A stretch of DNA of 56,857 nucleotides from Elusimicrobiota bacterium (GTDB lineage Bacteria; Elusimicrobiota; Elusimicrobia; Elusimicrobiales; UBA9959): the NCBI GenBank assembly GCA_018829985.1, contig JAHJSU010000333.1:1-56857 (forward strand), in the 5' to 3' direction. Below are positions 470 to 22,705 of this stretch, piece by piece. The notes beneath the pieces are model-generated. The model saw only the letters and a program-made list of their open reading frames with translations, was not told the origin of the DNA and ran no database searches. How positions within the stretch are numbered: position 1 is the stretch's first letter; every line of letters starts with the position of its first letter. The position numbers were made by a program, and so were the translations under genes.

Positions 470-472
470 AAC

Positions 473-555
473 GCAGATGATCACAGATGAACAGACGCAG
501 ATTATCGCAGATAACATTTGCGTTCATCTGCCCCTAATCTGCGGTTATCTGTGTG
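473..555. repeat. Word-hairpin (CAGATnn words), rplX-rplE spacer
   Basis: Left arm GCAGATGATCACAGATGAACAGACGCAGATTATCGCAGATAAC vs right arm GTTCATCTG..AATCTGCGGTTATCTGTG. Confidence 0.75.
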
Positions 556-574
556 TTCAAAGAGGTGTTCCAAA

Positions 575-1237
575 ATGATGAAGGATAACAAGGAAATCAG
601 GAAGGGCAAAGAGCCGAGAGACCACAAGGAAGCCAAAGAGGCCAAGGAAACGGTAAAATACGGCAACGTGATGCCCAAGGACTACACGCCGAGGCTTAAG
701 ACGGCGTATCTCCAGAAAATAGTCCCCGCCATTATGAAGGACCTGTCCCTCGGGTCTCCGATGGCCGTGCCCAGGATGACGAAGATAGTCATCAATATCG
801 GAGTAGGCGAGGCCAAGGAGAACATCCAGGCGCTGGACCTTGCCAAGGAAGACCTGACCCAGATAGCCGGCCAGGCGCCGCAGATCAGAAGGGCCAAGAA
901 GTCCATTTCCAATTTCAAATTGAGGCAGGGCATGCCGATAGCCGTAAGGGTCACCCTGCGCGGGGCCATGATGTACGAGTTCTTCGACAGGTTCGTGTCC
1001 CTGTCAGTGCCCAGGATACGCGATTTCCAGGGATTGGACCCGAAGTTATTCGACGGCCGCGGCAATCTGAACATAGGCCTGAAGGAACATCACATTTTCC
1101 CGGAAATTAACGTTGAAAAATCGCCCAAGGCCCGCGGCATGAACATCACCTTTGTCACCACGGCCGGCAGCGACGATAAAGCCAAGGCGCTGCTGGAGTA
1201 CCTGGGCATGCCTTTTAAAAAGGCGGCGAATAAATAG
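575..1237 (+). CDS. rplE: 50S ribosomal protein L5 with a Lys/Glu-rich N-terminal extension
   Basis: Conserved L5 core (RLKTAYLQKIVP...MAVPRMTKIVINIGVGEA...HIFPEI). ATG 575 follows AGAGG at 561-565. ATG 671 would give the canonical length but has no RBS. Confidence 0.9.
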   Translation: MMKDNKEIRKGKEPRDHKEAKEAKETVKYGNVMPKDYTPRLKTAYLQKIVPAIMKDLSLGSPMAVPRMTKIVINIGVGEAKENIQALDLAKEDLTQIAGQAPQIRRAKKSISNFKLRQGMPIAVRVTLRGAMMYEFFDRFVSLSVPRIRDFQGLDPKLFDGRGNLNIGLKEHHIFPEINVEKSPKARGMNITFVTTAGSDDKAKALLEYLGMPFKKAANK

Positions 1238-1456
1238 TCGATAGTGGAGAGTAAATAGAACGGAAGTCTAAAGTAATAACGCAAGTCGAGAGTGGAGAGT
1301 CTAGAGTAACTAGAACATAAGTCTAAAGTCGAGAGTAAGTAAAACAGAAGTCTAAAGTAATAAAATAATGTTTCCGCACTTTAGACTCTAGACTTTCGAC
1401 TTTAGACTATCGACCCTAGACTCTACACTTTAGACTCTAGACTTTAGACTTTACAC
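1238..1456. repeat. Word-hairpin (AGTCTAA/AGTGGAG words), rplE-rpsZ spacer
   Basis: Purine-rich left arm vs ACTTTAGACT-type right arm. Shares a 26-mer AACGCAAGTCGAGAGTGGAGAGTCTA with 22706-22985. Confidence 0.8.
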
Positions 1457-1476
1457 TGGTTTTTTAGGAGAAAAGA

Positions 1477-1662
1477 ATGGCTACATACGCTTGGATGGCG
1501 AAAATGCGCAAACCCCAGAAGTTTTCCACGCGCTTCAGGAACCGCTGCCAGATATGCGGAAGACCCCGGGGATATTACAGGGATTTTGGCCTTTGCAGAA
1601 TATGTCTCAGAAAGATGGCCCATGAAGGACTGATACCGGGCCTCAAGAAATCCAGCTGGTAG
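1477..1662 (+). CDS. rpsZ: 30S ribosomal protein S14, type Z (zinc-binding)
   Basis: 61 aa with CQICGRP...CRIC motif and C-terminal KKSSW. spc-operon position. Confidence 0.95.
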
Positions 1663-1668
1663 GATAAC

Positions 1669-1790
1669 GGCAGCGAATAGCAAATAGCGAATAGGGAATA
1701 ATGAATGGCGGAGTGGCGAATGGAAAACAGAAAAAATCATCAAAATCCGTATTTCCACCCCTATTCGCTATTCGCTAACCTCTATTCGCC
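1669..1790. repeat. Word-hairpin (GCGAATA words), rpsZ-rpsH spacer
   Basis: GCGAATA-GCAAATA-GCGAATA-GGGAATA.. vs CCCTATTCGCTATTCGCTAACCTCTATTCGCC. Confidence 0.75.
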
Positions 1791-1818
1791 AACGATTTAG
1801 CTTTTCAAAGGAGAAAAA

Positions 1819-2226
1819 ATGGACCCTATATCGAACATGCTGACCGCGATAAGGAATGCGGTGGTAAAAAATAAGGAAAGAGTGGATGTGCCGTTTTCAA
1901 ACATCAAAGCGTCGGTGGTAAAATTGCTTAAGGACGAGGGTTTTGTGGCCAATTATAAAGTGATAGACCATAAGACCGATAAGAGCATAGACAGGCGAGG
2001 CCTTATCAGGATCACGCTCAAATATACTCAGGACGAAAGACCCGTTATCACCGGCATCAAAAGAGTCTCCAAGCCCAGCTTGAGGATATACCGCCCGTAT
2101 GACGCCATCCCGAAGGTCCGGGCTGCGTTCGGCGTGAGCATCCTGTCCACTTCCCGGGGCCTTATGACCGATTCGCAGGCCAAAAAACAGAAAATCGGCG
2201 GAGAAGTGCTCTGTCAGGTGTGGTAA
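1819..2226 (+). CDS. rpsH: 30S ribosomal protein S8
   Basis: MDPISNMLTAIRNA start and C-terminal GGEVLCQVW. Synteny. Confidence 0.95.
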   Translation: MDPISNMLTAIRNAVVKNKERVDVPFSNIKASVVKLLKDEGFVANYKVIDHKTDKSIDRRGLIRITLKYTQDERPVITGIKRVSKPSLRIYRPYDAIPKVRAAFGVSILSTSRGLMTDSQAKKQKIGGEVLCQVW

Positions 2227-2355
2227 GGGAGTAATTGAGCGATTAAGTGATCGAGAGAGTAAGTTTGCCGTTTAAGAGAAATTTTTAAAAACTAAATTGC
2301 TTAATCACTGTTTCCTTAATCACCAGAACGAAAAAATTGATAAGAGGTAATGCTT

Positions 2356-2925
2356 ATGAGCAGAATCGGAAGGAAACCGGTGGTAGTGCCTGAAAAAGTA
2401 AAGGCCAGAATAGAAAACAGGACGGTTTTCGTGGAAGGCCCTCTGGGCAAGCTTTCCTACGGCCTTCCTGACGGCATTAATGCCGAGGTGAAAGAAGGCG
2501 GGATAAATCTGAGCGTGGCCGGCGGCGCCGTCGGCAAAGGCGCCCTTTACGGCACCACGAGAGCCAGAATAAACAACATGGTCAGCGGCGTTACCGGCGG
2601 TTTCGCCAAAGCGCTCGAGATCAGCGGCGTCGGCTTTAAAGGCGCCGTGGAAGGCGCCAAGCTTACCATGCAACTCGGCTTCTCGCACCCGGTTATCCTT
2701 GACATCCCGCCGGGCATCACGATGACGTTCGATCCCAAAGCGGTCGTGCTGACCATCAGCGGCATAGACAAGGAAATGGTGGGAAACCTTGCGGCCCAGA
2801 TAAAAAGGATAAGGCCCCCCGAGCCGTACCAGGGCACCGGAATAAAGTACAAGGGGGAGCACATCATCCGCAAAGCCGGCAAGACCGCTGCCGGAGCGGG
2901 CGCAGGCGGCGTTACAGCGAAATAA
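2356..2925 (+). CDS. rplF: 50S ribosomal protein L6
   Basis: MSRIGRKPV start, 8 nt after AAGAGG. ...EPYQGTGIKYKGE motif. The ORF track starts 6 nt earlier, at 2350. Confidence 0.93.
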   Translation: MSRIGRKPVVVPEKVKARIENRTVFVEGPLGKLSYGLPDGINAEVKEGGINLSVAGGAVGKGALYGTTRARINNMVSGVTGGFAKALEISGVGFKGAVEGAKLTMQLGFSHPVILDIPPGITMTFDPKAVVLTISGIDKEMVGNLAAQIKRIRPPEPYQGTGIKYKGEHIIRKAGKTAAGAGAGGVTAK

Positions 2926-2961
2926 AGTTTATTACATATTCACCGAGGAAAACGACCATAT

Positions 2962-3324
2962 ATGATCAGCAAACAGGATAAATACCAATTCAGAAAAGAT
3001 CGCACCAGGAAAAACCTGCTGGCCGGCGGTATGAGCAGGCCGCGGCTTAGTGTTTACAGGAGCGACAAGTACCTCTACGCGCAGGTCGTCGACGACGCCA
3101 AAGGCCTGACCCTTGCCGCGGCGTCCAGTGTGGAGAAGGAACTTAAAGGCAGTATCAAGTCCGGCAAAAATGTGGAAGCCGCCAAAGCAATCGGGGCGCT
3201 TGTGGCCAAACGGGCCATGGAGAAAGGCGTCACGGAAGTCCGCTTCGACAAGGGCGGCCGGATATATCACGGCAGGATCAAGGCTCTTGCCGACGCCGCC
3301 AGGGCGGCAGGGCTTAAGTTTTAA
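2962..3324 (+). CDS. rplR: 50S ribosomal protein L18
   Basis: 120 aa; RLSVYRSDKYLYAQVVDD...FDKGGRIYHGRIKALADAAR. Confidence 0.95.
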   Translation: MISKQDKYQFRKDRTRKNLLAGGMSRPRLSVYRSDKYLYAQVVDDAKGLTLAAASSVEKELKGSIKSGKNVEAAKAIGALVAKRAMEKGVTEVRFDKGGRIYHGRIKALADAARAAGLKF

Positions 3325-3416
3325 GGTGAAGGATTAAGTAGTAAGTGGTAAGGAATAAGTTACAAAGAGATAAGGAGTTTAAAACTTATCACTTAATCCT
3401 TACCGCTTAATCCTTA
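3325..3416. repeat. Word-hairpin (TAAGnnn words), rplR-rpsE spacer
   Basis: GGATTAAGTAGTAAGTGGTAAGGAATAAG vs CTTATCACTTAATCCTTACCGCTTAATCCTTA. Confidence 0.75.
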
Positions 3417-3435
3417 TAATTACGGAGAATCCATA

Positions 3436-3987
3436 ATGCTTAAAAACCAGAAACAACTGAAAACCGCGAAAGAACTCAACGCCGACGGCTCGGTCAAGGT
3501 GGAAGCGGAAATACTTGAGATAGAGGCCGCGCTCCCGGAGGAAAAGACCGTGGTCGTCGCCATCAACAGGGTTACCAAGGTCGTCAAAGGCGGCAAAAGA
3601 TTCTCTTTTAACGCGCTGGTCGTGGTGGGCGACGGCGCCGGTTCGGTCGGCGTCGCGCTGGGCAAGTCCAACGAGGTGCAGGTCGCCATACAGAAGGCCT
3701 CTTCCGCGGCCAGAAAAGAAATGATGAGTTTTCCGCTGTCAGGAACCACGATCCCGCACGAGGTGGAAGGTCATTTCGGCGCCGGACATGTGTGGATGAA
3801 GCCCGCCGTGGGCGGCACCGGCCTGATAGCAGGCGGCGGGGTCAGGGCGGTCCTTGAAGCCGGCGGCGTCAAGAACATCCTGACCAAGAATCTCGGCACG
3901 AGAAATTCGTTCAACACCGTCTACGCCACGCTTGACGCCCTGTGGCGGCTGAGGAGCCGGGAAGAAGTTTTAAAGATGAGAAGATAG
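3436..3987 (+). CDS. rpsE: 30S ribosomal protein S5 (with N-terminal extension)
   Basis: [25 protein letters not shown] core. Synteny. Confidence 0.93.
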
Positions 3988-4112
3988 CGGTCAAAGTATG
4001 CTTGACGGCTGGACAGCTAGACAGCTGGACGGCCATAAGGTCTGTAAACCTTAAAAAGCCGCCAAGCCGCCTAGCTGCCTGGCATACTTTAAGTCGTACT
4101 AGGAGAAACGAT

Positions 4113-4565
4113 ATGATAGGTCTAAACAATCTGCGGCCCAAACCCGGTTCTTTTCATAAGAGAAAAAGACTTGGGCTAGGCCAGGGTTCCGGGCATGGCC
4201 AGACCTCCACAAAGGGCCAGAAGGGCCAGAACGCCACCGCCGGCAGCTCAAAGCGCGACGGTTTTGAAGGCGGCCAGATGCCGCTGCTGCGGCGCATTCC
4301 CAAAAGCGGGTTCAGCAACACCAGGTTCAGGACTGTGTACGAATGGATAAACGTCTCGGTCCTTGAAAAACACTTCGCCGGCGGCGCCGAAGTGACCCCC
4401 GAGATACTGGTCTCTAAAAGGCTGATAAAAAAAGGCGACCTTCTTAAGGTCCTGGGCGACGGAGACTTTACAAAATCTCTGACCGTGCATGCCCACGCTT
4501 TTTCCGCGTCCGCCAGGGAAAAGATAGAAAAAGCCGGCGGGAAAGCCGAATTGATCGTCAAATAG
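4113..4565 (+). CDS. rplO: 50S ribosomal protein L15
   Basis: MIGLNNLRPKPGS...GRGQGSGHGQTSTKGQKGQ. AGGAG at 4101-4105. The longer track ORF from 3942 overlaps rpsE and was rejected. Confidence 0.93.
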   Translation: MIGLNNLRPKPGSFHKRKRLGLGQGSGHGQTSTKGQKGQNATAGSSKRDGFEGGQMPLLRRIPKSGFSNTRFRTVYEWINVSVLEKHFAGGAEVTPEILVSKRLIKKGDLLKVLGDGDFTKSLTVHAHAFSASAREKIEKAGGKAELIVK

Positions 4566-4611
4566 TTAGTCCTGCCCGCCACACATCTTCGGCGGGTCCG
4601 CCAAGGCTGTA

Positions 4612-5985
4612 ATGGCGGAAAAAACTGAGGACCAACTATTAAATAACGGGGAAAAAATGCAATCATTAACGGACTTATTCAAGATTCAGGACCTCAAGAA
4701 AAGAATATTATTCGTTATCGGGGCGCTGGCCGTTTACAGGCTTGGCGCCGTTATCCCGATCCCCGGCATCAACACCGCGGCCCTGCAGGCCATATTTCAG
4801 TCCCAGCAGGGCAGCTTGCTGGGATTCCTGGATATTTTCTCAGGCGGGGCGCTTAGCAGGTTCTCCATCTTCTCATTGGGCGTCATGCCTTACATCAACG
4901 CCTCCATCATAATGAGCCTGGTGCAGGGAGCGCATATCTTCCCGCTCCTCGACCATCTCCAGAAAGAAGGCGAATCCGGCCGTAAGAAGATCACGCAGTT
5001 CACCAGGGTGTTCACGCTTTTTCTGGCCGCTTTCCAATCGCTGGGCCTGACCATAGCCCTGACCAAGATGTCGCCGGCCGGCGGGGCTCCGATAGCGCCC
5101 AATGCCGATTTCATGTTCTACTTCGTTACCGTGCTTACGCTTACCACCGGCACTGTCTTCGTCATGTGGCTCGGCGAGCAGATAACCGAGCGCGGCATAG
5201 GCAATGGTATCTCACTCATTATATTCGCCGGCATTGTGGGCGGACTGCCCAGCGCCATTGCGAGCATGGTGAAACTGGTGCAGATAGAGGAAATAAGCCT
5301 GCTTACCGGGCTGACGATAATTGCCGTAGTGATGCTGGTCGTCGGATTTGTCGTGTGGGTGGAAACCGCGCAGCGCAAGATCCCCATCCAGTACGCGCAG
5401 CGCCAGGTGGGACGCAAAACGTACGGCGGGGTCAGCACTTTCCTGCCGCTTAAAGTGGACCAGTCCGGCGTTATCGCCGTTATTTTCGCGGTCTCGCTCA
5501 TAAGCGTGCCTTATACCATAACCCAGTTCAATCCCAACGCCGTCTGGGCGCAGACGGTTATGTCTTTCATGGACCACGGTAATATGGTTTACCAGCTTAT
5601 GTACGTGGCGCTTATTGTCTTTTTCTGTTACTTTTACAACTCGGTCAGCATCAACCCCAAGGATCTGGCCGAGAACATGAAGAAGTGGGGCGGATTTATC
5701 CCCGGCATCAGGCCGGGCGAGCCCACGGCTCATTACATAGAATGGGTGATGAACAGAATAACGCTGGGCGGCGCTCTTTTTGTGGCCATGATAGCGGTCC
5801 TTCCCGATTATATGCGGGACAAATTCAATGTGCCGTTTTACTTCGGCGGCACGTCGCTGTTGATAGTGGTCGGCGTCGCGCTGGACACGGTTGCCCAGAC
5901 GGAAGCCCACCTTATAATGAGGAATTACGAAGGTTTCTACAAGAACTCCAAGATCAAAGGCCGCTGGTTCAACGTGGGGAGTTAA
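4612..5985 (+). CDS. secY: Preprotein translocase subunit SecY
   Basis: Multi-TM protein with SecY motifs (SIFSLGVMPYINASII, GEQITERGIGNGISLIIF). Alternative start at ATG 4657. Confidence 0.93.
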   Translation: MAEKTEDQLLNNGEKMQSLTDLFKIQDLKKRILFVIGALAVYRLGAVIPIPGINTAALQAIFQSQQGSLLGFLDIFSGGALSRFSIFSLGVMPYINASIIMSLVQGAHIFPLLDHLQKEGESGRKKITQFTRVFTLFLAAFQSLGLTIALTKMSPAGGAPIAPNADFMFYFVTVLTLTTGTVFVMWLGEQITERGIGNGISLIIFAGIVGGLPSAIASMVKLVQIEEISLLTGLTIIAVVMLVVGFVVWVETAQRKIPIQYAQRQVGRKTYGGVSTFLPLKVDQSGVIAVIFAVSLISVPYTITQFNPNAVWAQTVMSFMDHGNMVYQLMYVALIVFFCYFYNSVSINPKDLAENMKKWGGFIPGIRPGEPTAHYIEWVMNRITLGGALFVAMIAVLPDYMRDKFNVPFYFGGTSLLIVVGVALDTVAQTEAHLIMRNYEGFYKNSKIKGRWFNVGS

Positions 5986-6174
5986 TCCGAAAATTGCGGT
6001 TGAAATCGGTTCCCCCAAGCCTGGGGGTAATATCCAAGGCAATTTTCGGAAGGCTAAAGGATAAAGGCTTAAGGATGAAGGCAAGACACGGCGAATACAA
6101 GGGCTTTTTTTCGCCCTTTAGCCTTTATCCCTCATCCTTTATCCTTCCCGAAAAATTCAACTGAATTTTCCGGG
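5986..6174. repeat. Composite three-hairpin element (CCGAAAATTGC / AGGnTnA heptamers / CCCGAAAAATT), copy 1
   Basis: Hairpin 1 is CCGAAAATTGC..GCAATTTTCGG. Hairpin 2 is AGGCTAA-AGGATAA-AGGCTTA-AGGATGA.. vs CCTTTAGCCTTTATCCCTCATCCTTTATCCTT. Hairpin 3 is CCCGAAAAATTCAACTGAATTTTCCGGG. Confidence 0.85.
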
Positions 6175-6192
6175 TTAACGGAGGTGATGGGC

Positions 6193-6840
6193 ATGAATAT
6201 CGTTCTTTTGGGGTATCCCGGCTCGGGCAAAGGCACGCAGGCGAAAGCCTTGAGCGAAAAATTTTCGCTTTTTCATATCTCGACCGGCGATATTTTCAGG
6301 GAAGCTATCGCCGCGAACGCCCCGCTGGGTCTGGAAGTCGCCGACTATCTCGCGGCGGGCCGGCTGGTCCCGGATAAGCTTGTGCTGGAGATAATAAAAG
6401 ACAGAATCTCCACTGAAACCAGGGGGCTTCTGTTCGACGGATTCCCGAGGACTGTGGACCAGGCCCAGGGCCTGGACGATTATTTTACCGCCAGAAATCA
6501 GGCTGTGGACGCGGCGCTGTTTCTTGACGTGGATGAGGAAGAAGTGGTCCAAAGGCTCGGTTCCAGGCGCACGTGTCCCAAATGCCGGAAGATATACAAT
6601 CTGCTTTCTTCTCCGCCGCTCAAAGAAGGGCTCTGCGACGGCTGCGGCGGAAAGCTTGTACTGCGCGAAGACGATAAGCCTGAAGTGATCCACAGGCGGC
6701 TCGGCGTTTACAAGGACCAGACAGAGCCGCTCATCGCTTACTACAAGGGTATCGGGACTTTTCATAGCGTCAAAGGCGGCAGGGCTCCGGAGGAAGTTGC
6801 GGCCGAGATTTCGGCCATTCTGGGGAACAGAATTGCGTGA
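6193..6840 (+). CDS. adk: Adenylate kinase (zinc-lid type)
   Basis: P-loop GYPGSGKGT and lid CPKC...CDGC. GGAGG lies 8-9 nt upstream of ATG 6193. Confidence 0.93.
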   Translation: MNIVLLGYPGSGKGTQAKALSEKFSLFHISTGDIFREAIAANAPLGLEVADYLAAGRLVPDKLVLEIIKDRISTETRGLLFDGFPRTVDQAQGLDDYFTARNQAVDAALFLDVDEEEVVQRLGSRRTCPKCRKIYNLLSSPPLKEGLCDGCGGKLVLREDDKPEVIHRRLGVYKDQTEPLIAYYKGIGTFHSVKGGRAPEEVAAEISAILGNRIA

Positions 6841-7029
6841 ATGGGTAACGGCTCACCACAGAGGCACGGAGAGCACGGAGTTTTCTCCGCCGAAGGCGGA
6901 CCCCCGCCAATACAACTCGGCGGGCGCAGCGCCGGGCTGTTTGGCGGGCACGGAGTTTTTTCCTCGGTGTTTCTCTGTGTTCTCCGTGTCTCCGTGGTTT
7001 TGTACTATCTCTTTTATTGCTGAGTAGTT
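6841..7029. repeat. Diverged MITE-B-like hairpin with nested REP units (adk-map spacer)
   Basis: Left end GGTAACGGCTCACCACAGAGGCACGGAGAGCACGGAG. Right end CTCCGTGTCTCCGTGG...GCTGAGTAGTTA abuts the map ATG. REP units CCGCCGAAGGCGGA etc. sit in the loop. Confidence 0.55.
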
Positions 7030-7791
7030 ATGAACATGGTGGAAATTAAAACCGCCGCCGAGCTTGACAAAATAAGGCAGGCGTCAAAGATAGTGGCCCG
7101 GACGCTGGCGCTTTTAAAGAACAATATCCGGTCCGGCGTTTCCACCGCCTATTTGAACGCTCTGGCGGAGAGCGAGATCAGAAAAAATAACGCAGTCCCG
7201 GCCTTTCTCGGTTACCGTGGTTATCCCGCAACGCTTTGCGTGTCCATAAACGAGGAAGTGGTTCACGGCATGCCAAACGCCCGGCGGTTTTTGAAAAACG
7301 GGGATGTGGTAAGCCTGGACCTCGGAGTTGTTTACGCGGATTTTTACGGCGACGCGGCCGTGACGGTGGCGGTCGGCGAAGTGAAGCCCGAGTGTTCCAG
7401 GCTGATTTCGGTCACGGAACAGTCCCTTGCCAGGGCTGTTTCAACCGTTAAAAACGGCGCGTGCCTGGGGGATGTGTGTTACGCGGTGGAAAGTTTTGTG
7501 GTTCAAAAAGGGATGTCCGTGGTCAGGGAATTCACCGGGCACGGCATAGGACGCCGCCTCCATGAGGAGCCGTCCATCCCTAATTACGGCAAACCCGGCT
7601 CGGGCGTAATGCTTAAAGTCGGGATGACGCTTGCCATCGAGCCGATGGTGTGCCTGGGCCGGCCGGAAGTGAGTATAAAAAACGACGGCTGGACGGCCGT
7701 TTCCGTGGACGGCAGCTGCGCGGCGCATTTCGAGCATACGGTGGCCGTGACGGAAAACGGATGCGAAATACTTACTCTGATTCAAGATTGA
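7030..7791 (+). CDS. map: Methionine aminopeptidase, type I
   Basis: FTGHGIGRRLHEEP and AHFEHTV metal-ligand motifs. Synteny. Confidence 0.93.
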   Translation: MNMVEIKTAAELDKIRQASKIVARTLALLKNNIRSGVSTAYLNALAESEIRKNNAVPAFLGYRGYPATLCVSINEEVVHGMPNARRFLKNGDVVSLDLGVVYADFYGDAAVTVAVGEVKPECSRLISVTEQSLARAVSTVKNGACLGDVCYAVESFVVQKGMSVVREFTGHGIGRRLHEEPSIPNYGKPGSGVMLKVGMTLAIEPMVCLGRPEVSIKNDGWTAVSVDGSCAAHFEHTVAVTENGCEILTLIQD

Positions 7792-7854
7792 AGATTCAAG
7801 ATTTAAGATTGCCGGCATCTCCCAATCTTAAATCCGTAATCTTTAATCTTCAAT
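7779..7854. repeat. Word-hairpin (GATTnAA words) whose left arm starts in the last codons of map
   Basis: GATTCAAGATTGAAGATTCAAGATTTAAGATTG vs CAATCTTAAATCCGTAATCTTTAATCTTCAAT. The same word family occurs at 31476-31565. Confidence 0.75.
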
Positions 7855-7890
7855 TACGGTAATATTATTAATTTGATATAATATACGGAT

Positions 7891-8112
7891 ATGCCCGAAA
7901 ACAGCGAAAAGATCGAAGTGGAAGGGATCGTCAAAGAAGCCCTTCCGAACGCCACTTTCAGGGTTGAGATTTCGGCCGGCAAGATAATACTAGGCCATAT
8001 ATCAGGCAAGATGCGCATCAACCATATAAAGATACTTCCGGGCGACAAGGTGAAAATGGAACTTTCACCCTATGATCTGTCCCGGGGCCGGATAGTTTAC
8101 AGGGAAAAGTAA
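7891..8112 (+). CDS. infA: Translation initiation factor IF-1
   Basis: 73 aa; [18 protein letters not shown]...[16 protein letters not shown]1-like fold signature. Confidence 0.95.
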
Positions 8113-8278
8113 AAACGGCGCGGTAAAGGATAGCGACGGAAAGCAAGGGAAGGCAAAGGAACGCCATAGAAAGTAAGAGGTTGCGTAAGAATTTCTTCCC
8201 CATTCTTACCTTCAGTTGCCTTCCGCGGCTTTCTGTAGCTTTCAATTGCTGACAGTTACTAATGAGGAGCTTGTTAAA

Positions 8279-8392
8279 ATGAAGGTAAGGGCGAGCGTAA
8301 AAAAAATCTGCAATAAGTGCACGATAGTCAAAAGAAAAGGCGTAGTCAGGGTTATCTGCAAAGATCCCCGCCATAAGCAACGGCAGGGCTAA
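8279..8392 (+). CDS. rpmJ: 50S ribosomal protein L36
   Basis: Hand-translated 37-aa [40 protein letters not shown]. It is below the ORF-track cutoff. GAGGAG RBS at 8264-8269. Confidence 0.92.
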
Positions 8393-8396
8393 TAGG

Positions 8397-8485
8397 CAGT
8401 AACCAGTAATCGGTAACCAGTAAAAAGCGGGCAGCAGACAGATTTTGCGGATTTACCGGTAACCGGTTACTGATTACCGATTACT
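8397..8485. repeat. Word-hairpin (CAGTAAC words), rpmJ-rpsM spacer
   Basis: Phased heptamers CAGTAAC-CAGTAAT-CGGTAAC-CAGTAAA vs TTACCGGTAACCGGTTACTGATTACCGATTACTG. The same family occurs at 9372-9451, 25183-25250 and 26134-26161. Confidence 0.8.
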
Positions 8486-8506
8486 GCAGTATTTTAAGGA
8501 GAAAGT

Positions 8507-8905
8507 ATGGCAAGAATAGCGGGTGTGGATTTACCGAGAGAGAAAAGAATAGACGTTGCGCTTGCGTATGTCTACGGCATAGGCCGGCCCCTGGCCGGTA
8601 AGATACTGGAAAGCCTGAAAAGCCAGGTGGATCCTTCCACCAGGGTCAAAAACCTTACCGAAGACCAGGTCGGCATGCTGAACACGCTGATCTCCAAAGA
8701 ATACAAGGTGGAAGGCGAACTCAGGAGAGAGGAGACCGCCCATATCAAAAGGCACGTCGAAACAGTCAGTTACCGCGGCTACCGCCACAGAAGAGCCCTC
8801 CCGGCCAGGGGCCAGCGCACCAGAACCAACGCCCGGACAAGGCGCGGCAGGAGAAAGACCGTCGGCTCGACGGCAAAAGCTCCGGCCAGACCGGCGGTTA
8901 AATAA
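8507..8905 (+). CDS. rpsM: 30S ribosomal protein S13
   Basis: [14 protein letters not shown] start; [24 protein letters not shown]. Confidence 0.95.
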
Positions 8906-8926
8906 TAGAGGCAGGTAAAATTTACC

Positions 8927-9367
8927 ATGACCGAAGAAAAAAAACAACAACAGCAGCCTGGTACCGACAGCTCAAAAAAACAGGAGCATAAGCCCCAGCC
9001 GAAAAGAAGGCATCACGGTTCGGTGACTTTCGCGAAAGTCTACATCAACTGCTCCTTCAACAACACCATTGTCACCATTGCCGATGAAAAAGGAAATGTG
9101 CTGGCCTGGTCCACTTCCGGCGCCAATGGCTTCAGGGGAACCAAAAAAGGAACCCCTTTTGCCGCGCAGATAACCGCCTCCAAGGCGGCCGGCCGGGCGG
9201 TGGAGTACGGAGTAAAACAGGCCATAGTATTCGTCACCGGACCCGGCAACGGCAGAGAAACGGCGATCAGGGCGATAGGCTCTAGCGGCATCCACGTGCT
9301 CTCCATAAAAGACACCACGCCGATACCGCATAACGGCTGCAGGCCGCCCAAGCCGCGCAGAGTGTAA
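8927..9367 (+). CDS. rpsK: 30S ribosomal protein S11 (with N-terminal extension)
   Basis: [28 protein letters not shown]...[13 protein letters not shown]. Confidence 0.95.
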
Positions 9368-9371
9368 ACAG

Positions 9372-9451
9372 CTGTAACCGGTACCCGGTAATCGGTAAAA
9401 GGGAGTTTCAACTATTCGTTACTGGTTACTGGTAACTGATTACCGGTTACC
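9372..9451. repeat. Word-hairpin (GGTAAnC words), rpsK-rpsD spacer
   Basis: CTGTAACCGGTACCCGGTAATCGGTAAAA vs CGTTACTGGTTACTGGTAACTGATTACCGGTTACC. Confidence 0.75.
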
Positions 9452-9469
9452 ATAGCTTTTTGGAGGATT

Positions 9470-10108
9470 ATGTCCAGATACACAGGTCCCAGCTGCAAAA
9501 AATGCGCCAAAATAAGTCAGAAGCTGTTCCTCAAAGGGAACAAATGCTTTACCAACTGCGCGGTGGATAAACAGCAGAAGGCAAGCCGCGACAAGAAATT
9601 CTCCTCAGGCCACGGCCATAGCAAAATATCCGACTACGCCAAGCACCTGCGCGAAAAGCAGAAAGCCCGGTTTATGGCGCAGATCGGAGAGGCTCAGTTC
9701 AAGAGATTCTTCTCGATGGCTTCCAAAGACAAAGGCAAGACCGGCGAGGCGCTGCTGCGCTTTTTGGAGGTGCGTCTCGATAACGTCGTCAGGCGTCTGG
9801 GGTTCGCGGTCTCGCTTAAGGCCGCGCGGCAGCTCGTTAACCATGGGCATATCCGCGTCAACGGCCGCCAGGCGGACATCCCGTCGGCCCTGGTCAAACC
9901 CGGAGACGTAGTGGCCATAAACCCCAAGGCCGCCCAGACGCTTCTCGTCAGGCAGGGGCTTGAACACGCGGAAAAATCCGCCCCCCGGCCGAGTTTTCTT
10001 GCCTACGACCCCGGCGCCATGACGGGTAAGATGGTGCGCTGGCCGGACCGCGGGGAAGTCTCAATAAACGTCGATGAACAGCTGATAGTGGAATTTTATT
10101 CCAAGTAA
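9470..10108 (+). CDS. rpsD: 30S ribosomal protein S4
   Basis: MSRYTGPSCKKC start and S4 RNA-binding domain (RLDNVVRRLGFA...HGHIRVNG). Confidence 0.95.
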   Translation: MSRYTGPSCKKCAKISQKLFLKGNKCFTNCAVDKQQKASRDKKFSSGHGHSKISDYAKHLREKQKARFMAQIGEAQFKRFFSMASKDKGKTGEALLRFLEVRLDNVVRRLGFAVSLKAARQLVNHGHIRVNGRQADIPSALVKPGDVVAINPKAAQTLLVRQGLEHAEKSAPRPSFLAYDPGAMTGKMVRWPDRGEVSINVDEQLIVEFYSK

Positions 10109-10137
10109 ACGCGTATTTAGAGGAGGTCGTTCAATCA

Positions 10138-11115
10138 ATGCCTAGTTTTTCAAAACAACTGATAATCCCCGAAGTTATAAACGCGGAGGAAAAGACCAGG
10201 ACCGAGAATTACTCTAAATTCACCGCCGAGCCCTATGAAAAGGGCTACGGCCATACCATAGGAAATTCCTTGAGGCGCATACTTCTGTCCAGCCTTGACG
10301 GCGCGGCCATAGTGGCCGTCAGGATAAAGGGCGCCAGGCACGAGTACTCCGCCATCAACGGCGTTGAGGAAGACGTCATCAACATGCTCTTAAACCTTAA
10401 AAAACTGAGGGTCCGCCTGACCGGCGAAGGCCCTGAGACCCTTACGTTGTCGGTGCGCGGCAAAAAAGAGGTGAAGGCCGCTGATATCAATGAAAACGCC
10501 AGCGTTACGATCATCAACAAAGACCTGGTCATAGCGCACGTCGAGTCGGGCGCCGTTTTTGAGGCGGAGCTTGAGATCGCCAGAGGCGCCGGTTACCTGA
10601 CTTCGGAAGAGATCAGGGCCCGCATGAACCTCCCGATAGACTTTATCCCCATGGACGCGCTTTTTTCTCCCATACAGAAAGTGCATTATACCGTGGAAAA
10701 CGCCAGAGTCGGCCAGCGCACGGACTATGACAGGCTGGTCCTTGAGGTATGGACCGACGGCAGCATCAGTCCGTCGGAAGCGGTGACAAAGACCGCCTCT
10801 CTTCTGCGCCGTTCCATCATCCCATTCCTGCCCGAAGCCGAAGCGTCGGGAGAGCCGGCCAAGGAAGCGGCTGCCGAGGCCGGGGAGAAGGGGATCAAGC
10901 TCAAAAGCACGCTGGAGCAGGGCGTGGAAATGATAGAACTTTCTTCGCGCGCTTCCAACTGCCTTAAAGTCGCCGGCATACGCACGATAGGCGAGCTGGT
11001 GGGAAAGACCGAAGACGATCTGCTGGCCGTTAAGAATTTCGGTAAGAAATCACTGGACGAGATCAAGGAAAAACTCAAAGAAATGGGACTTGAACTCGGG
11101 ATGAAGCCGGAATAA
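10138..11115 (+). CDS. rpoA: DNA-directed RNA polymerase subunit alpha
   Basis: GYGHTIGNSLRRILLSS N-terminal domain. C-terminal domain LSSRASNCLKVAGIRTIGELV...NFGKKSLDEIK. Confidence 0.95.
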   Translation: MPSFSKQLIIPEVINAEEKTRTENYSKFTAEPYEKGYGHTIGNSLRRILLSSLDGAAIVAVRIKGARHEYSAINGVEEDVINMLLNLKKLRVRLTGEGPETLTLSVRGKKEVKAADINENASVTIINKDLVIAHVESGAVFEAELEIARGAGYLTSEEIRARMNLPIDFIPMDALFSPIQKVHYTVENARVGQRTDYDRLVLEVWTDGSISPSEAVTKTASLLRRSIIPFLPEAEASGEPAKEAAAEAGEKGIKLKSTLEQGVEMIELSSRASNCLKVAGIRTIGELVGKTEDDLLAVKNFGKKSLDEIKEKLKEMGLELGMKPE

Positions 11116-11301
11116 CCCGAAAATTGCGAAGCAATTTTCGGAAGGCTAAAGGATAAAGGCTGAAGGATGAAGGAAAAGATACAGCAGATACGCCCGCTAT
11201 TTCAGCGGGCGCTCGCCGAACTGGCGAGCGATTTTTTCCGCCCCTTAGCCTTTATCCCTAATCCTTTATCCTTCCCGAAAAATTTAACTAAATTTTTCGG
11301 G
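11116..11301. repeat. Composite three-hairpin element, copy 2 (rpoA-rplQ spacer)
   Basis: Same architecture and near-identical arms as 5986-6174. The loop carries a terminator-like stem. Confidence 0.85.
11209..11238 (+). terminator. Intrinsic-terminator-like stem-loop plus T-run inside composite element copy 2
   Basis: GCTCGCC-GAACT-GGCGAGC followed by ATTTTTT. Confidence 0.45.
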
Positions 11302-11316
11302 ATTTAGGATCCATTT

Positions 11317-12707: not shown

Positions 12708-12842
12708 CCGACGGCGCTTGGAGTTTTTCCGCCTAAGGCGGACCCGTAGGTTGTTTGGCGGGCGATCCTAATGCAGCTTAGTACAGGATCGGATTTCCGG
12801 AACTCAGGCGCTTAAAGTTTCCCGCTTAAAATCGAGTCTTTG

Positions 12843-13023
12843 CCCGAAAATTGCAGTTGAAGTCGTCCGCTGAAGGCGGATATCCATTGCAATTTTCGAA
12901 GGATAAAGGATGAAGGCTAAAGGATGAGGGTAAAAACACTGGAAAACAAAAAGATTTTTCCGTCCCTTAGCCTTTATCCTTTAGCCTTAAGCCTTCCCGA
13001 AAAATTCATCTGAATTTTTCGGG
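12843..13023. repeat. Composite three-hairpin element, copy 3 (mreB-mreC spacer)
   Basis: Same architecture. Partial copies lie at 24245-24345 and 36699-36779. Confidence 0.85.
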
Positions 13024-13040
13024 TTATATAAGGAAAGACT

Positions 13041-13901
13041 ATGAACAGGGAAAAAGACATGGCGAATTACGCTTTCGTCTTTTTCGTCTTCCTTTCGGCG
13101 CTTTTGCTGTTGTTCCCTTCCACCAGGGTCGCCCAGACCGCCAGAATAATAGCCAGTTACAGCCTGTATCCTTCGCTTCATTACGGCGCCAAATACGACT
13201 ATTACATCCGCAACGTCCCGGAAAATTTCCTGAATCTCCTGAAGACCGACCAGGAAAACCGGGCCTTGAAAAGCAAGATAAAAGAACTGGAGATCTCCGT
13301 TAAAACCGCCAGGGCGGCCGAGGCCGAAAACCAGCGCCTTACCGGAGAGATGGGGCTTTCAAGGAACCTCGCTTTCAGGGGGGTATGGGCCAGGGTAATC
13401 AACAAGAACCCGCTGGACTGGTACGGGTCTTTCTTTATAAACAAGGGCGCTAAAGCGGGCATTACGCTGAACGCCACCGTGATCGGGTTCGAAACCGCCC
13501 GCCTCGGCCTGATCGGCAGGGTATTCGAAGTCTATCCGGATTTTTCCAAAGTGCTTCTGATAACCAACGGGGCTTCATCGGTCATAGGCTCCGTGCCGGG
13601 CGCCAATTTTGAGGGTCTGGCCGAAGGCAGGGGCACCTGGCTTTTAAAGGTGAATTATATTCCCGAAGGCTCCGATATCGCCGAAGGCATGGAGCTTATA
13701 ACTTCTCCGAGCGGGCTCCTTTTCCCGCCGGGGCTGCCGGTGGGCCGGGTGGCCAGGGTCCACCCGAAAGAATCGTTCATGAATTTCATAACCGCCGATG
13801 TGGCGCCGGCCATAAGCATCAACTCGCTTAAAGAAGTATACGTGATAAAAAGGGACCTGCCCGCGGACCTCTACGGGCTCTCGGAAGGCGTAAAGAAATG
13901 A
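13041..13901 (+). CDS. mreC: Rod shape-determining protein MreC
   Basis: N-terminal TM segment, coiled coil (ENRALKSKIKELE) and C-terminal SPSGLLFPPGLPVGRV motif. Position between mreB and mreD. Confidence 0.85.
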   Translation: MNREKDMANYAFVFFVFLSALLLLFPSTRVAQTARIIASYSLYPSLHYGAKYDYYIRNVPENFLNLLKTDQENRALKSKIKELEISVKTARAAEAENQRLTGEMGLSRNLAFRGVWARVINKNPLDWYGSFFINKGAKAGITLNATVIGFETARLGLIGRVFEVYPDFSKVLLITNGASSVIGSVPGANFEGLAEGRGTWLLKVNYIPEGSDIAEGMELITSPSGLLFPPGLPVGRVARVHPKESFMNFITADVAPAISINSLKEVYVIKRDLPADLYGLSEGVKK

Positions 13902-14377: not shown

Positions 14378-16299
14378 TAGAGCGGGGGATATCGCGGGAC
14401 AGGCTGGACATCTTATGGCTGTGCGTGGCGGCGGTCGGCCTGGTATTTTTCCTGCGCCTGGTCAATCTTCAGATACTGATGCACACTTATTACAGGAATA
14501 TAGCGGAGAAAAACAGGACCCAGATCCTGCCGCAGTCCGCGCCCAGAGGCAGGATCTACACCAGGGATTCGGCGGCAGTGGCCGCCAATAAACCCTCTTT
14601 CAGCCTGATCTATTTCCCCGGCCGGCTTCGTTCGGTGGACACCATGGATAAAATAGCCGCAAGCCTGGCCAGACGCCTGAGCGTGCCTTTTGAGGAGCTG
14701 CGCGCCAGCCTTTACAAGGCGGTAAAAAAAGAGGCGCCCATGCGCCTGGCGGAAAATCTTTCCTTAAAAGCCATGTTTTCCCTTTCCGAGCTTAAAACCC
14801 TGTATGAGGGGATAGACATCATCGTGGAGGCCAGGCGTTATTATCCTTTCGGCAACTATCTGAGCCACCTTACCGGCTACATAAGCAAGATGGATGCAAA
14901 AGAGTGGGCGATATACGGAAAAAATAAAAATTACAGCATGGACTCCCGCGTGGGCAAGACCGGCCTGGAAAAAAAGTACGAGAAAAACCTTAAAGGCAAA
15001 GACGGCGGCATTTACCTTGAGGTGGACGCGCGCGGCAAATTAAACAGGATACTTGAAAGCAGAAAATGGGCGCCCGGCGCGGACATATACCTGACCGTAG
15101 ATTCAAAGATACAGGCCGCCGCCGAGGCGGGGCTTAAAAAATCTTCCACCAGCAGAGGCGCCGTGGTGGCCATAGATCCCCGCAGCGGGGCGGTCCTCGC
15201 CATAGCCTCCATGCCCGATTACGACCCGAACAGGTTCGTATCCTATTCGGACGAGAAAACCGAGGACGATTTTAAAGAGCTGCCGGAATTTAATGTCGCC
15301 ATCCAGGGAACCTACCCTCCCGGCTCGATCTTCAAGATCGTGAGCGCGGTCGCCGCCTTTGAATCCGGAAGGCTCGACCCCGCGGAGGCTTTTTTCTGCC
15401 CCGGTTACTACGACGCCGGGAGCCGTGTCTTTAAATGCTGGGAGAAAAAGGGACACGGACGCATGGATTTCATGCAGGGACTGACCCACTCCTGTGATGT
15501 CTATTTTTACAACCTCGGGCTTAAAACCGGCGCGCTGAACATAGAGAAATACTCCAGGGCTTTCCGCCTGGGCATGCCGACCGGCATTCCCCTGCCGGAT
15601 GAAAAAAGCGGCAACGTTTTCGGCCCCAGCAAAAGGGCGGCCAGGAAAAGCTACTGGTTCATAGGCGACACGCTGAATTTGAGCATAGGGCAGGGGGAGT
15701 TGCTTGTGACCCCGATACAGATGGCCCAGATGGCCGCGGCGGTGGCCAACGGCGGAGTTTTCTGGCGGCCGTATTATGTGGAGCGGGTCGTCAACAGCGA
15801 GGGGAAGGATGTTTTTAAGGGCAAACCGGAGCTGCTGTCCAAAGTGGTTTTAAAAGACAGTACCTGGGCGCTCATCAGGGACGGACTGAAACAGGTCGTC
15901 CTTGAAGGCACGGGACGGGCCGCTAAAATAAACGGCGTTGAGGTGTTCGGCAAGACCGGCACGGCCCAGAACCCGCATGGCAAAGACCACGCCTGGTTCG
16001 TGGCTTTCGCCCGGCTTCCAGGTGAGGATTCCGAAATAGCCGTCGCGGTGCTGGTGGAGTACGGCGAGCACGGCGCTTCTTCCGCCGCGCCCATAGCCAG
16101 GGATGTTATAAAGGCCGCTTTGCGCGGCAAATTGCCGGAGCGCCGGGAAAAGTCGCAGGGCACAGGTCAGAGGTCAGAGGTCAGAGGTCAGAGGTCAGAG
16201 GTCACGGCGGAAGATGCGGGAGCCGAGCCGCCGACCGCTCAAAGCGGCCTTGAAGAGCTTTCCGTTTCCACGACCGCTGTACTGGAGGAGGGGCGATGA
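14374..16299 (+). CDS. mrdA: Penicillin-binding protein 2 (elongasome transpeptidase)
   Basis: PBP dimerisation and transpeptidase motifs (SIFK, GKTGTAQ). Synteny with rodA. The C-terminal tail contains a heptamer repeat. Confidence 0.9.
   Translation: MIERGISRDRLDILWLCVAAVGLVFFLRLVNLQILMHTYYRNIAEKNRTQILPQSAPRGRIYTRDSAAVAANKPSFSLIYFPGRLRSVDTMDKIAASLARRLSVPFEELRASLYKAVKKEAPMRLAENLSLKAMFSLSELKTLYEGIDIIVEARRYYPFGNYLSHLTGYISKMDAKEWAIYGKNKNYSMDSRVGKTGLEKKYEKNLKGKDGGIYLEVDARGKLNRILESRKWAPGADIYLTVDSKIQAAAEAGLKKSSTSRGAVVAIDPRSGAVLAIASMPDYDPNRFVSYSDEKTEDDFKELPEFNVAIQGTYPPGSIFKIVSAVAAFESGRLDPAEAFFCPGYYDAGSRVFKCWEKKGHGRMDFMQGLTHSCDVYFYNLGLKTGALNIEKYSRAFRLGMPTGIPLPDEKSGNVFGPSKRAARKSYWFIGDTLNLSIGQGELLVTPIQMAQMAAAVANGGVFWRPYYVERVVNSEGKDVFKGKPELLSKVVLKDSTWALIRDGLKQVVLEGTGRAAKINGVEVFGKTGTAQNPHGKDHAWFVAFARLPGEDSEIAVAVLVEYGEHGASSAAPIARDVIKAALRGKLPERREKSQGTGQRSEVRGQRSEVTAEDAGAEPPTAQSGLEELSVSTTAVLEEGR
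16164..16205 (+). repeat. (AGGTCAG)5 + AGGTCAC tandem heptamer inside the mrdA 3' end
   Basis: Read directly. 42 bp = 14 codons, translated as GQRSEVRGQRSEV. Confidence 0.9.
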
Positions 16300-17636: not shown

Positions 17637-17643
17637 AAAGAAA

Positions 17644-17716
17644 GGGTATAGGGGCTAGGGTAGAGGGTGCGGAAATAAGGAACTCCTTACCCTGAACCCT
17701 ATACCCTCTACCCTAG
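17644..17716. repeat. Word-hairpin (GGGTAnA words), rodA downstream
   Basis: Phased GGGTATA-GGGGCTA-GGGTAGA-GGGTGCG vs CCTTACCCTGAACCCTATACCCTCTACCCTAG. The same family occurs at 25934-25962, 26743-26800, 21785-21865 and 38340-38430. Confidence 0.8.
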
Positions 17717-18512: not shown

Positions 18513-18657
18513 GGACTAAAGTAGGTGTTAAGGGTTTTAGGGGCTTAGGGTACAGAAATAATTAAAAAGGCCGTTCCCTTAAACCCTTAACTCCTTAACC
18601 CCTAATACTTAACTTTAATTCCTATAATTTACAAAGTGCAAGGAGAGTTTTAATATC

Positions 18658-22674: not shown

Positions 22675-22705
22675 CCAAAAAAGCGCGCGGATTTAATAGA
22701 ATAAG

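Follow-up and report, generated by a model that had tools for sequence, protein, structure and literature searches.

The DNA analysed here, referred to as the window, is the 56,857-nt contig JAHJSU010000333.1 of an Elusimicrobiota bacterium (assembly GCA_018829985.1). Its first 12 kb hold the spc and alpha operons of ribosomal-protein genes, which run from rplX to rplQ, with mreBCD-pbp2-rodA coming next. The gene order is rplX-rplE-rpsZ-rpsH-rplF-rplR-rpsE-rplO-secY-adk-map-infA-rpmJ-rpsM-rpsK-rpsD-rpoA-rplQ-mreB. The spacers between these genes, most of which contain hairpins whose arms are short tandem repeats, are the subject of this report. In gene order they measure 105, 239, 156, 129, 36, 111, 125, 91, 207, 189, 99, 166, 114, 21, 102, 29, 201 and 2 nt. 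A recount therefore agreed with a first-pass annotation of the window, made from the sequence alone, in which 13 of 18 junctions were given as 99–239 nt. The hairpins are located between the stop codon of one gene and the Shine-Dalgarno sequence of the next, and both flanking genes are intact. Arms reach into the 3' ends of map (7772–7791), a response regulator gene (39522–39528) and a histidine kinase gene (39984–39988), the same three genes for which overlap with the last codons had been reported.

Match frequencies at fixed lags were compared with those of shuffled sequence for the spacers up to 41.5 kb. At lag 7 the frequency was 0.378 versus 0.263 (z = 16.4), such that the period read by eye in the first-pass annotation is clearly enriched in the window spacers. 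Elevated values were also obtained at lag 14 (z = 13.7), lag 21 (z = 9.2) and lag 8 (z = 4.6), while lags 5, 6 and 9 were not significant in these spacers. Coding DNA contained period 3 alone, without a lag-7 signal, apart from two arrays within open reading frames (ORFs). Tandem Repeats Finder (TRF) returned 38 period-7 rows in the window, and the arrays are degenerate (72–100% matches). A typical arm consists of 4–6 units of a family-specific word, mostly of 7 nt. The claim that arms have a 7-nt and sometimes an 8-nt period applied to 8 of the 13 long spacers; the other five have period 8 (spacers starting at 2227 and 3988), about 8–9 (6841), 10 (8113) or about 10–12/24 (470). TRF recovered the arrays quoted previously at 6050–6081, 8397–8423, 1672–1700 and 39431–39460, but only the 3' arm (17688–17715) of the example at 17.6 kb.

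Folding was evaluated against dinucleotide shuffles. Twelve of the 13 long spacers, all of which had been described as hairpins, folded at z = −2.2 to −10.4 with stems of 25–74 pairs; the remaining spacer (2227–2355) did not fold better than its shuffles (z = −0.3). The same architecture had been said to occupy almost every spacer up to 41.5 kb. We found it in about 21 of the 30 spacers of at least 60 nt, whereas the rest hold other palindromes. The purine-rich arm came first in 79 of 80 paired arrays from the window, relatives and metagenome contigs, and the single exception is a junction between two adjacent elements. Thus, the polarity noted previously is real, but the remark that it holds even between minus-strand genes carries no information, because an inverted repeat that runs from purine to pyrimidine gives the same pattern when reverse-complemented. 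Polarity was rejected on these grounds as evidence about strand or transcription, and the symmetry implies that the purine-first order is a property of the element itself.

Although the words had been considered locus specific, we found the same words at several window loci and, with the exception of GATTYAA, on other contigs, identifying them as multi-copy families. Within the window AAGGMTA occurs at 6050, 11142, 12899, 24251 and 36770, AGTCTAA at 1284–1457 and 22708–22868, AGTAGGT at 23602, 39431 and 39903, CAGTAAC at 8397, 9374 and 25191, and GATTYAA at 7779 and 31485. Contigs of the Ga0180009 metagenome also carry AGTCTAA, GGGTAKA, AGTAGGT, GCGAATA, CAGTAAC and a GTAACTACTCAG-ended element; GATTYAA did not recur on other contigs. 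The rplE-rpsZ element has a near-identical relative at 22700–22870 and two more at two junctions of a related locus, L002 (alignment A2; L-numbers denote loci).

The AAGGMTA array belongs to a composite element of about 190 nt (P-B-P) in which the AAGGMTA heptamer hairpin is preceded by a CCCGAAAATTGC...GCAATTTTCGG hairpin and followed by a CCCGAAAAATT...AATTTTTCGGG hairpin. Three full and two partial copies are present in the window, and the full copies at secY-adk, rpoA-rplQ and mreB-mreC align through their non-periodic parts as well. In the metagenome collection, 42 loci match a 24-nt diagnostic pattern of this element exactly, and 41 of these lie on separate Ga0180009 contigs; none of the metagenome contigs overlapped the window by 400 bp or more. 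The 25 complete copies are 151–277 nt long, contain no ORF and have CCCGAAAA...TTTTCGGG termini, with the inverted termini CCCGAAAATT...AATTTTTCGGG; a second family has the inverted ends GTAACTACTCAG...CTGAGTAGTTAC. The left flank of the composite is TAA, TAG or TGA, and the right flank TTA, CTA or TCA in 19 of the 25 copies. A 5' arm of 5 units is shared by 39 of 54 copies, indicating that the array is inherited with the element. Among 22 copies the arms were at least 90% conserved and the loop was hypervariable.

We collected about 45 orthologous loci from the phylum Elusimicrobia. SecY is about 87–93% identical to that of several groundwater Elusimicrobia metagenome-assembled genomes (MAGs), and the long spacers were found to be empty in many relatives. 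The rplX-rplE spacer is 105 nt here versus 12–14 nt, the Shine-Dalgarno segment only, in eight relatives; at adk-map, where the distance is 189 nt here, the genes of most relatives overlap or have 0 nt between them; the 207 nt of secY-adk compare with 5–8 nt; infA-rpmJ is 166 nt versus 15 nt in L002; and rpoA-rplQ is 201 versus 4–67 nt. Relatives whose SecY is 87–93% identical have 0–15 nt at rplX-rplE, adk-map, infA-rpmJ and rpoA-rplQ, and the Shine-Dalgarno segment is kept. About 20 other Elusimicrobia loci have compact spacers devoid of period-7 arrays. Short spacers in closely related genomes, which the first-pass annotation had itself set as a refutation, are thus seen at rplX-rplE, adk-map, secY-adk and rpoA-rplQ, and they contradict a conserved role of the spacers.

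Occupied junctions also vary. At rpsE-rplO an AGTCTAA hairpin is present in L002, and the spacer is 1 nt in L005, L010 and L018; at rpmJ-rpsM a GGGTAGA hairpin in L002 replaces the CAGTAAC hairpin of the window; and at rplR-rpsE a related word occurs in L005 and a different one in L002. The GTAACCG word of the window is also found at rpsK-rpsD in L001 and L002, and the L019 homologue of the GATTAAGTGAT hairpin at rpsH-rplF is better preserved than the window copy. The C-terminus of Map has been changed to ...LIQD in the window and in L019, the last codons having been overwritten by the GATTCAA array.

These comparisons bear on the possibility that the hairpins are purely local, neutral expansions of the microsatellite type, in which each spacer grows its own inverted heptamer arrays by slippage without copying between loci. 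Such growth would fit the differences between homologous hairpins of the window and L002, its closest relative, which come in blocks of 7 x n nt: the L002 homologue at rpsZ-rpsH has an extra 21-nt (3-unit) block, and that at rplE-rpsZ differs by larger blocks of units. Unpaired arrays also exist, namely GGATGAR at 20108–20136 and (AGGTCAG)x6 in a coding tail at 16164–16204, and the Omnitrophota locus L046 has chains in which the word changes gradually, which look like duplication in place. However, elements at many unlinked loci are almost identical, down to their non-periodic stretches and end hairpins, most copies of one family keep to 5 units, and the lengths at empty sites in relatives are all-or-none rather than graded. 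As a sole explanation local expansion is largely refuted by the dispersal over 41 contigs, and we consider it distinctly improbable.

An assembly or sequencing artefact of the metagenome-assembled genome is hardly credible. Short-read assemblies do break at repeats, and one independent Logan contig, L123 (SRR6514730_110882), stops inside AAGGCTAAAGGATAAAGG, the B array of P-B-P copy 2, as expected because multi-copy repeats break assembly graphs. That contig is nonetheless 100% identical to window 8138–11159, which takes in three hairpin spacers wholly or in part. MAGs and assemblies of other studies (L001, L002, L005, L019 and the Ga0180009 contigs) contain the same families with the same architecture, and the hairpins lie precisely between intact genes.

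A further explanation is that the hairpins are selected RNA structures, i.e. sites cut by RNase III or RNase E/G, obstacles to exonucleases or insulators of translation between the cistrons of a polycistronic transcript, in which structure is kept while sequence drifts. The position of the 25–74-pair stems exactly between the stop codon and an always intact Shine-Dalgarno sequence, the different words at one junction in different genomes (rpsE-rplO, rpmJ-rpsM and rplR-rpsE) and the conservation of arms over loops all agree with this idea. Moreover, repetitive extragenic palindromes (REP), bacterial interspersed mosaic elements (BIME) and Correia elements influence how stable an mRNA is or are RNase III substrates. 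If transcribed, the spacers would form 25–70 bp stems in the operon mRNA, where stems of 20–40 bp had been proposed at first pass, but no signal of RNA-level selection accompanied them. None of 26 predicted pairs had compensatory changes among 22 copies of the AAGGMTA hairpin, and an RNA fold supported by covariation was therefore rejected. When G-U pairing was forbidden, the 1x1 mismatches in stems of the window spacers comprised 17 of the G:T type and 15 of the A:C type; without a bias between the two, selection on the plus-strand RNA via wobble pairs was likewise rejected.

The composite element is slightly asymmetric and its orientation can therefore be scored. Between tandem genes 9 copies were co-oriented and 11 anti-oriented with respect to transcription, which is random, and copies also lie between convergent (13 times) and divergent genes (6 times). 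A search with Rfam 15 at the gathering score gave no match in any spacer, the only window match being tRNA-Ser at 41598–41686, and known RNA families were rejected on this basis. Intrinsic terminators were rejected as well: a consensus scan detected just the nested GC-rich mini-hairpins (e.g. 11210–11230), not the heptamer stems. Close relatives, moreover, have these junctions empty or the genes overlapping, and roughly 20 Elusimicrobia loci are free of arrays; taken together, these results make selected RNA structures an unlikely explanation. Nothing found here calls for the processing, insulation or protein-binding roles considered previously.

The explanation that we regard as probable is that the long spacers hold several families of small, non-coding, selfish palindromic repeats, similar to MITEs (miniature transposable elements with inverted repeats) or REPINs (REP doublets forming hairpins), that proliferated in one groundwater-type Elusimicrobia sub-lineage. 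Families are dispersed in many copies, elements are present or absent at the same junctions, the best-sampled family has terminal inverted repeats, elements are nested, unit number varies, and there is no signature of RNA-level selection. Elements of this kind would land in intergenic DNA past a stop codon and ahead of the next Shine-Dalgarno sequence, where they are tolerated, would nest in each other's loops and arms and would occasionally rewrite the last codons of a gene, so that presence, family and unit number come to differ among close relatives. They may be mobilised in trans by a transposase or an enzyme like the REP-associated tyrosine transposases (RAYTs), and their arms may grow and shrink through slipped-strand replication. 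Effects on mRNA, with stem-loops possibly stalling exonucleases or attracting RNase III, would be by-products, as with REP/BIME and Correia elements.

Several observations weigh against this explanation. Ends resembling terminal inverted repeats were recognised in two families only (P-B-P and the GTAACTACTCAG-ended family), and most heptamer hairpins have no recognisable termini. The TA...TA flanks, a candidate target-site duplication, fit only about 15 of 25 composite copies (~60%), and the left-hand TAR and right-hand YTA could instead extend the inverted termini. As an autonomous partner, no transposase domain was present in the window ORFs, and no transposase was found among 10 repeat-bracketed ORFs of metagenome contigs, all of which are housekeeping genes; the whole sequence examined amounts to only about 360 kb, and no RAYT was seen in the same two sets of ORFs. 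Conservation of arms over loops shows a constraint on the arms, which could arise from the needs of mobility or from a function. The hairpins with different words at rpsE-rplO and rpmJ-rpsM can be read as selection on structure at those junctions. Finally, neither the purine-first polarity nor the 7-nt unit across unrelated words is predicted by a plain MITE model.

The last point raises the idea that the 7-nt register and the purine-first polarity, shared by more than 10 families with unrelated words, are the footprint of a dedicated, undescribed molecular process that is independent of sequence. We consider this quite unlikely. Similar features are seen in Omnitrophota, Xanthomonas and cyanobacteria. 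In one form of the idea, an enzyme would copy or add 7-nt units at 3' ends facing the hairpin centre, much like two telomere-like arrays fused head to head; in another, a protein would read single strands in 7-nt steps, as a requirement for mobility or for a role at the RNA level. If true, the hairpins would be products of a new repeat-generating or repeat-reading system and not ordinary MITEs. With respect to polarity alone, we infer that a pyrimidine arm placed first on the nascent RNA might act as a Rho loading site, and that the same arm placed second would be paired at once.

The elements that we interpret as selfish repeats share the spacers with other palindromes and serve as their targets. 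A 47-nt mini-element (CCGTCTGATGAGCATAGCTCCTGATACGGCACCTACGCAGGTATTGG) is located at the identical point, after AAGGATGAAGG, in seven composite copies (L087, L089, L090, L095, L108, L110 and L113) and is absent from the window. GC-rich CCGCC...GGCGG mini-hairpins (e.g. CCCGCCGGCTGTTTTCCGCCACACAACTTCGGCGGA) occur in tandem units of 36 nt or singly, nested within heptamer-hairpin loops, and elements of this type are inserted in three metagenome composite copies. Elements with the ends GT(A/T)ACTACTCAG...CTGAGTAGT(A/T)AC constitute a separate family, with copies at 22867–22968, 30396–30510 and 56719–56826 of the window and in L111. Their interior is variable and contains either CACAAAG 8-mer arrays or a GC-rich stem. 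The L111 copy is a 115-nt element inside the B array, i.e. within a heptamer array, and the same element is present at 30.4 kb of the window.

The statement that these hairpins belong to no described repeat class was too strong, as convergent pairs of heptamer arrays are known from Xanthomonas (PMC4692102) and heptamer arrays from cyanobacteria and Beggiatoaceae (PMC4679880). The exclusion of CRISPR and, by sequence, of REP/BIME and enterobacterial repetitive intergenic consensus (ERIC) elements holds; a CRISPR array was rejected, since the hairpins pair inverted tandem arrays of 7-nt units and lack any alternation of spacers and repeats. In Xanthomonas, GGGAATC heptamer arrays form 70–75 convergent opposite-strand pairs per genome, with a length that varies between species (Rehm et al. 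2015, PLoS One, PMC4692102). According to the same article, heptamers are over-represented among the simple repeats of bacteria, and no detailed literature accounts for them. As in the window, the Xanthomonas arrays are intergenic, often lie two together on opposite strands in convergent orientation with the G- or purine-rich array first, and differ in length from one related genome to another although the type of pair stays the same. They are transcribed as parts of mRNAs, as the arrays of the window would be. Xanthomonas uses essentially one G-rich word with G-quadruplex potential, whereas at least 10 words are used here in addition to 8- and 10-nt variants, and most lack G-runs: three or more consecutive Gs occur only in some words (GGGTAKA, CTAGGGG) and not in AGTCTAA, GATTCAA, GCGAATA, CAGTAAC or AAGGMTA. 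Also unlike Xanthomonas, at least one family here is embedded in a larger element that carries terminal hairpins of its own and is dispersed in many near-identical copies, mini-elements are nested, and the host phylum is different.

Heptamer arrays are present in regulatory regions of Nostoc (bioRxiv 10.1101/2022.06.06.494920), and PMC4692102 notes heptanucleotide repeats of Calothrix and Nostoc and reports few pairs in Nostoc. The cyanobacterial repeats resemble those of the window in their many words, intergenic arrays, inserted mini-elements and lineage specificity. The cyanobacterial arrays appear to be mostly unpaired and direct, whereas purine-first hairpin pairing is the rule here, and the words differ. 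Mazel et al. reportedly described the cyanobacterial STRR (short tandemly repeated repetitive) heptamers of Calothrix, Anabaena and Nostoc in 1990, and Elhai et al. are said to have described in 2008 very small dispersed repeats of Nostoc that insert into heptamer arrays. Direct TAACTGA heptamer repeats are known from Beggiatoaceae, cyanobacteria and some Bacteroidetes (MacGregor 2015, PMC4679880). Like the arrays here they are intergenic, have 2–6 units, place stop codons in all three frames and are patchy across phyla. They differ in being direct, with only one inverted case, in consisting of a single word and in their usual position immediately ahead of start codons in a fixed orientation; the arrays here come in pairs, are built from many words and are not oriented in any fixed way relative to genes.

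REPINs are hairpin-forming doublets with a variable spacer (Bertels & Rainey 2011, PMC3116915), and a single REP is described in PMC3733652 as a 20–40 nt palindrome often tagged with GTAG or CGTC. REP/BIME and REPINs share with the present elements a high copy number, extragenic location, two inverted units around a less conserved spacer, enrichment at 3' ends, non-autonomy and use as insertion targets. The differences are that a REP or REPIN is based on a single 20–40 nt unit, whereas the arms here are tandem arrays of many families per genome, that a GTAG or CGTC tag is lacking in the main family, and that no RAYT was found. Correia elements of Neisseria, RUP (repeat unit of pneumococcus) and ERIC are bacterial MITEs that fold into mRNA hairpins. 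These resemble the present elements in size (100–280 nt), terminal inverted repeats, possible TA flanks, dozens of presumably co-transcribed copies between genes and presence/absence polymorphism of strains, but they have neither the internal heptamer periodicity nor the purine-first polarity. A literature search for such repeats in Elusimicrobia found nothing relevant. New here are the facts that many word families occur side by side, that arrays are as a rule paired, that they can be embedded in larger elements which have ends of their own, and that nearly every ribosomal-protein junction has been invaded.

This lineage provides a dense natural data set: many word families, all paired and with one polarity, lie in the most conserved operons of the genome, and dozens of relatives are available in which occupied sites can be set against empty ones. 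How heptamer arrays originate, how fast they turn over and what they cost essential operons thereby become directly testable questions. The elements also matter for annotation, as they break short-read assemblies, inflate intergenic length and can alter the 3' ends of genes in Elusimicrobia MAGs. The hairpins and palindromic elements are collected in Table 1.

Table 1. Hairpins and palindromic elements of the window. Evidence consists of fold z versus shuffles, match frequency at the given lag, TRF arrays, inverted repeats (I-numbers) and counts of base pairs; A1 and A2 are alignments. Hairpins other than P-B-P are 70–220 nt.
Element	Location	Coordinates	Strand	Evidence and details
CAGATNA-type hairpin	rplX-rplE	471–554		z = −5.0; 30 pairs; TRF period 24 (~10–12/24, not 7)
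AGTCTAA/AGTCGAG hairpin	rplE-rpsZ	1242–1458		z = −4.7; lag-7 0.54; 74 pairs; purine arm to ~1360, pyrimidine arm 1378–1457
GCGAATA hairpin	rpsZ-rpsH	1668–1794		arms 1672–1700 and 1761–1789; z = −4.5; lag-7 0.48; TRF
Weaker GATTAAGTGAT hairpin, ~8-nt period	rpsH-rplF	2226–2313		z = −0.3; lag-8 0.41
TAAGGAT/TAAGTAG hairpin	rplR-rpsE	3329–3415		z = −4.7; lag-7 0.51; I6, 38 nt at 76%
GCTGGACA (8-nt) hairpin	rpsE-rplO	3991–4104		z = −4.1; lag-8 0.49
Composite P-B-P copy 1: CCGAAAATTGC...GCAATTTTCGG hairpin, AAGGMTA heptamer hairpin (6050–6146), CCCGAAAAATT...AATTTTCCGGG hairpin	secY-adk	5986–6173	+	A1; z = −5.3; 188 nt; TA...TA flanks
GCACGGAG (8-9-nt) hairpin	adk-map	6855–6998		z = −7.5; 55 pairs; three CCGCC-type hairpins nested in loop (~6886–6950)
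GATTCAA hairpin	map-infA	7773–7861		I2, 40 nt at 80%; TRF 7779–7810 and 7824–7854; purine arm begins in final codons of map
AAAGGAAAGC (10-nt) hairpin	infA-rpmJ	8114–8257		z = −2.7; lag-10 0.50
CAGTAAC hairpin	rpmJ-rpsM	8396–8487		z = −5.1; lag-7 0.50; identical in Logan contig
GTAACCG hairpin	rpsK-rpsD	9370–9457		z = −4.0; lag-7 0.54; identical in Logan contig
Composite P-B-P copy 2	rpoA-rplQ	11117–11303	+	A1; z = −10.4; two GC-rich hairpins nested in loop (11196–11230)
Composite P-B-P copy 3	mreB-mreC	12835–13027	+	A1; whole-spacer z = −7.4; CCGCC-type hairpins ahead at 12713–12812
GGGTAKA / TACCCTM hairpin	rodA-DUF2344	17643–17714		z = −4.4; lag-7 0.48; TRF 17688–17715
GTTAAGGG / CCCTTAAC (8-nt) hairpin	upstream of RNase E/G gene	18512–18623		TRF 18576–18603, period 8; 37 pairs; whole-spacer z just −1.0
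(CTAGGGG)x4 / TATACCCTAGACGC hairpin		21792–21864		TRF 100% array; z = −3.4; lag-7 0.61
Second AGTCTAA element (~22700–22870) and adjoining GTTACTACTCAG-ended hairpin with CACAAAG 8-mers (22867–22968)		22725–22981		I1, I5; A2; z = −7.6
Diverged AAGGMTA hairpin with CCGAAAAT end		24241–24345		TRF 24251–24269 and 24310–24343; fold
GGGTAGAGGGTAAAG / (ACCCTAA)x5 array pair		26742–26797		TRF 26763–26797; lag-7 0.55; pyrimidine arm longer than purine arm
Palindrome nest: 115-nt GTAACTACTCAGG...CCTGAGTAGTTAC element (~30396–30510) and ATCAAAGATTAAAAAT hairpin (30549–30649)		30376–30659		z = −11.1
GATTKAA hairpin		31481–31574		TRF 31485–31524; I17, 27 nt at 89%
Truncated composite copy: P hairpin and two AAGGCTA units		36700–36780	+	sequence and fold
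AGAGAATAGAGGTT / GGGGTTAGGG hairpin	downstream of response-regulator gene	38340–38429		TRF 38340–38373, period 14; 34 pairs
AGTAGGT hairpin	between convergent genes	39429–39528		z = −5.4; lag-7 0.51; overlaps 3' end of minus-strand response regulator (Pfam)
AGTAGGT hairpin	between minus-strand histidine kinase and response regulator	39903–39985		z = −7.1; lag-7 0.52; I11; Pfam
GTTACTACTCAG-ended CACAAAG hairpin		56719–56826		I9; z = −6.2; same family as 22867–22968
CCGCC...GGCGG family sites		41960–42200, 53383–53467, 33304–33470, 12713–12812, 6886–6950, 4569–4633		

The hairpin-rich region ends at tRNA-Ser(tga) on the minus strand (41598–41686), and 20 bases of the 5' end of this tRNA (AACCACTCGGCCACCCTTCC) recur at 42206–42225. 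A defence island lies beyond it, with the type I restriction-modification genes HsdR (42509–44878), HsdM (46603–48171) and HsdS (48171–49355), AbiEii (45529–46437) and a TOTE AEP primase-helicase (54371–56710). This boundary accounts for the apparent end of the hairpin architecture at 41.5 kb. The island is almost devoid of heptamer hairpins, its sole element of such kind being that at 56719–56826, and this would be consistent with recent acquisition.

Arrays were also found outside paired hairpins. The perfect (AGGTCAG)x6 array is 42 nt long and lies in frame in the C-terminal tail of PBP2, past the transpeptidase domain, where it encodes repeated GQRSEVR and has no partner arm. Another array, (GTCACCA)x4 at 26132–26160, is inside an ORF called as a radical-SAM QueE-like gene (25963–26742). 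The unpaired, purine-rich GGATGAR x4 array fills the gap (20108–20164) between the RNase E/G stop codon and the ATG of an amidase gene at 20165 and provides an AAGGAG Shine-Dalgarno sequence; this ATG is followed by a signal-peptide-like sequence and is probably the true amidase start.

The heptamer phenomenon occurs with a different layout in another phylum. In the Candidatus Omnitrophota MAG L046, two copies (2296–2667 and 13266–13470) of a chain of purine-rich heptamer arrays exceeding 200 nt were found, in which the word shifts stepwise through AACAGAA, CAAGATA, ACAAATN, GAATGAC, GCAAGCT, GTAACAA and GACATAG. Array density in L046 is 8 per 10 kb, matching the window.

Two further observations concern the operons. 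The rpmD (L30) gene is absent between rpsE and rplO (3988–4112), the spacer of which holds a hairpin; the two genes are 1 nt apart in L005, L010 and L018. Upstream of infA, a TTTT(A/G)GTATAATATA motif (7865–7893) ends about 7 nt before the ATG and is kept in every Elusimicrobia relative examined. Judging by its sequence, the motif looks like a −10-like box, placed as it would be for a leaderless or near-leaderless infA transcript from its own intra-operon promoter.

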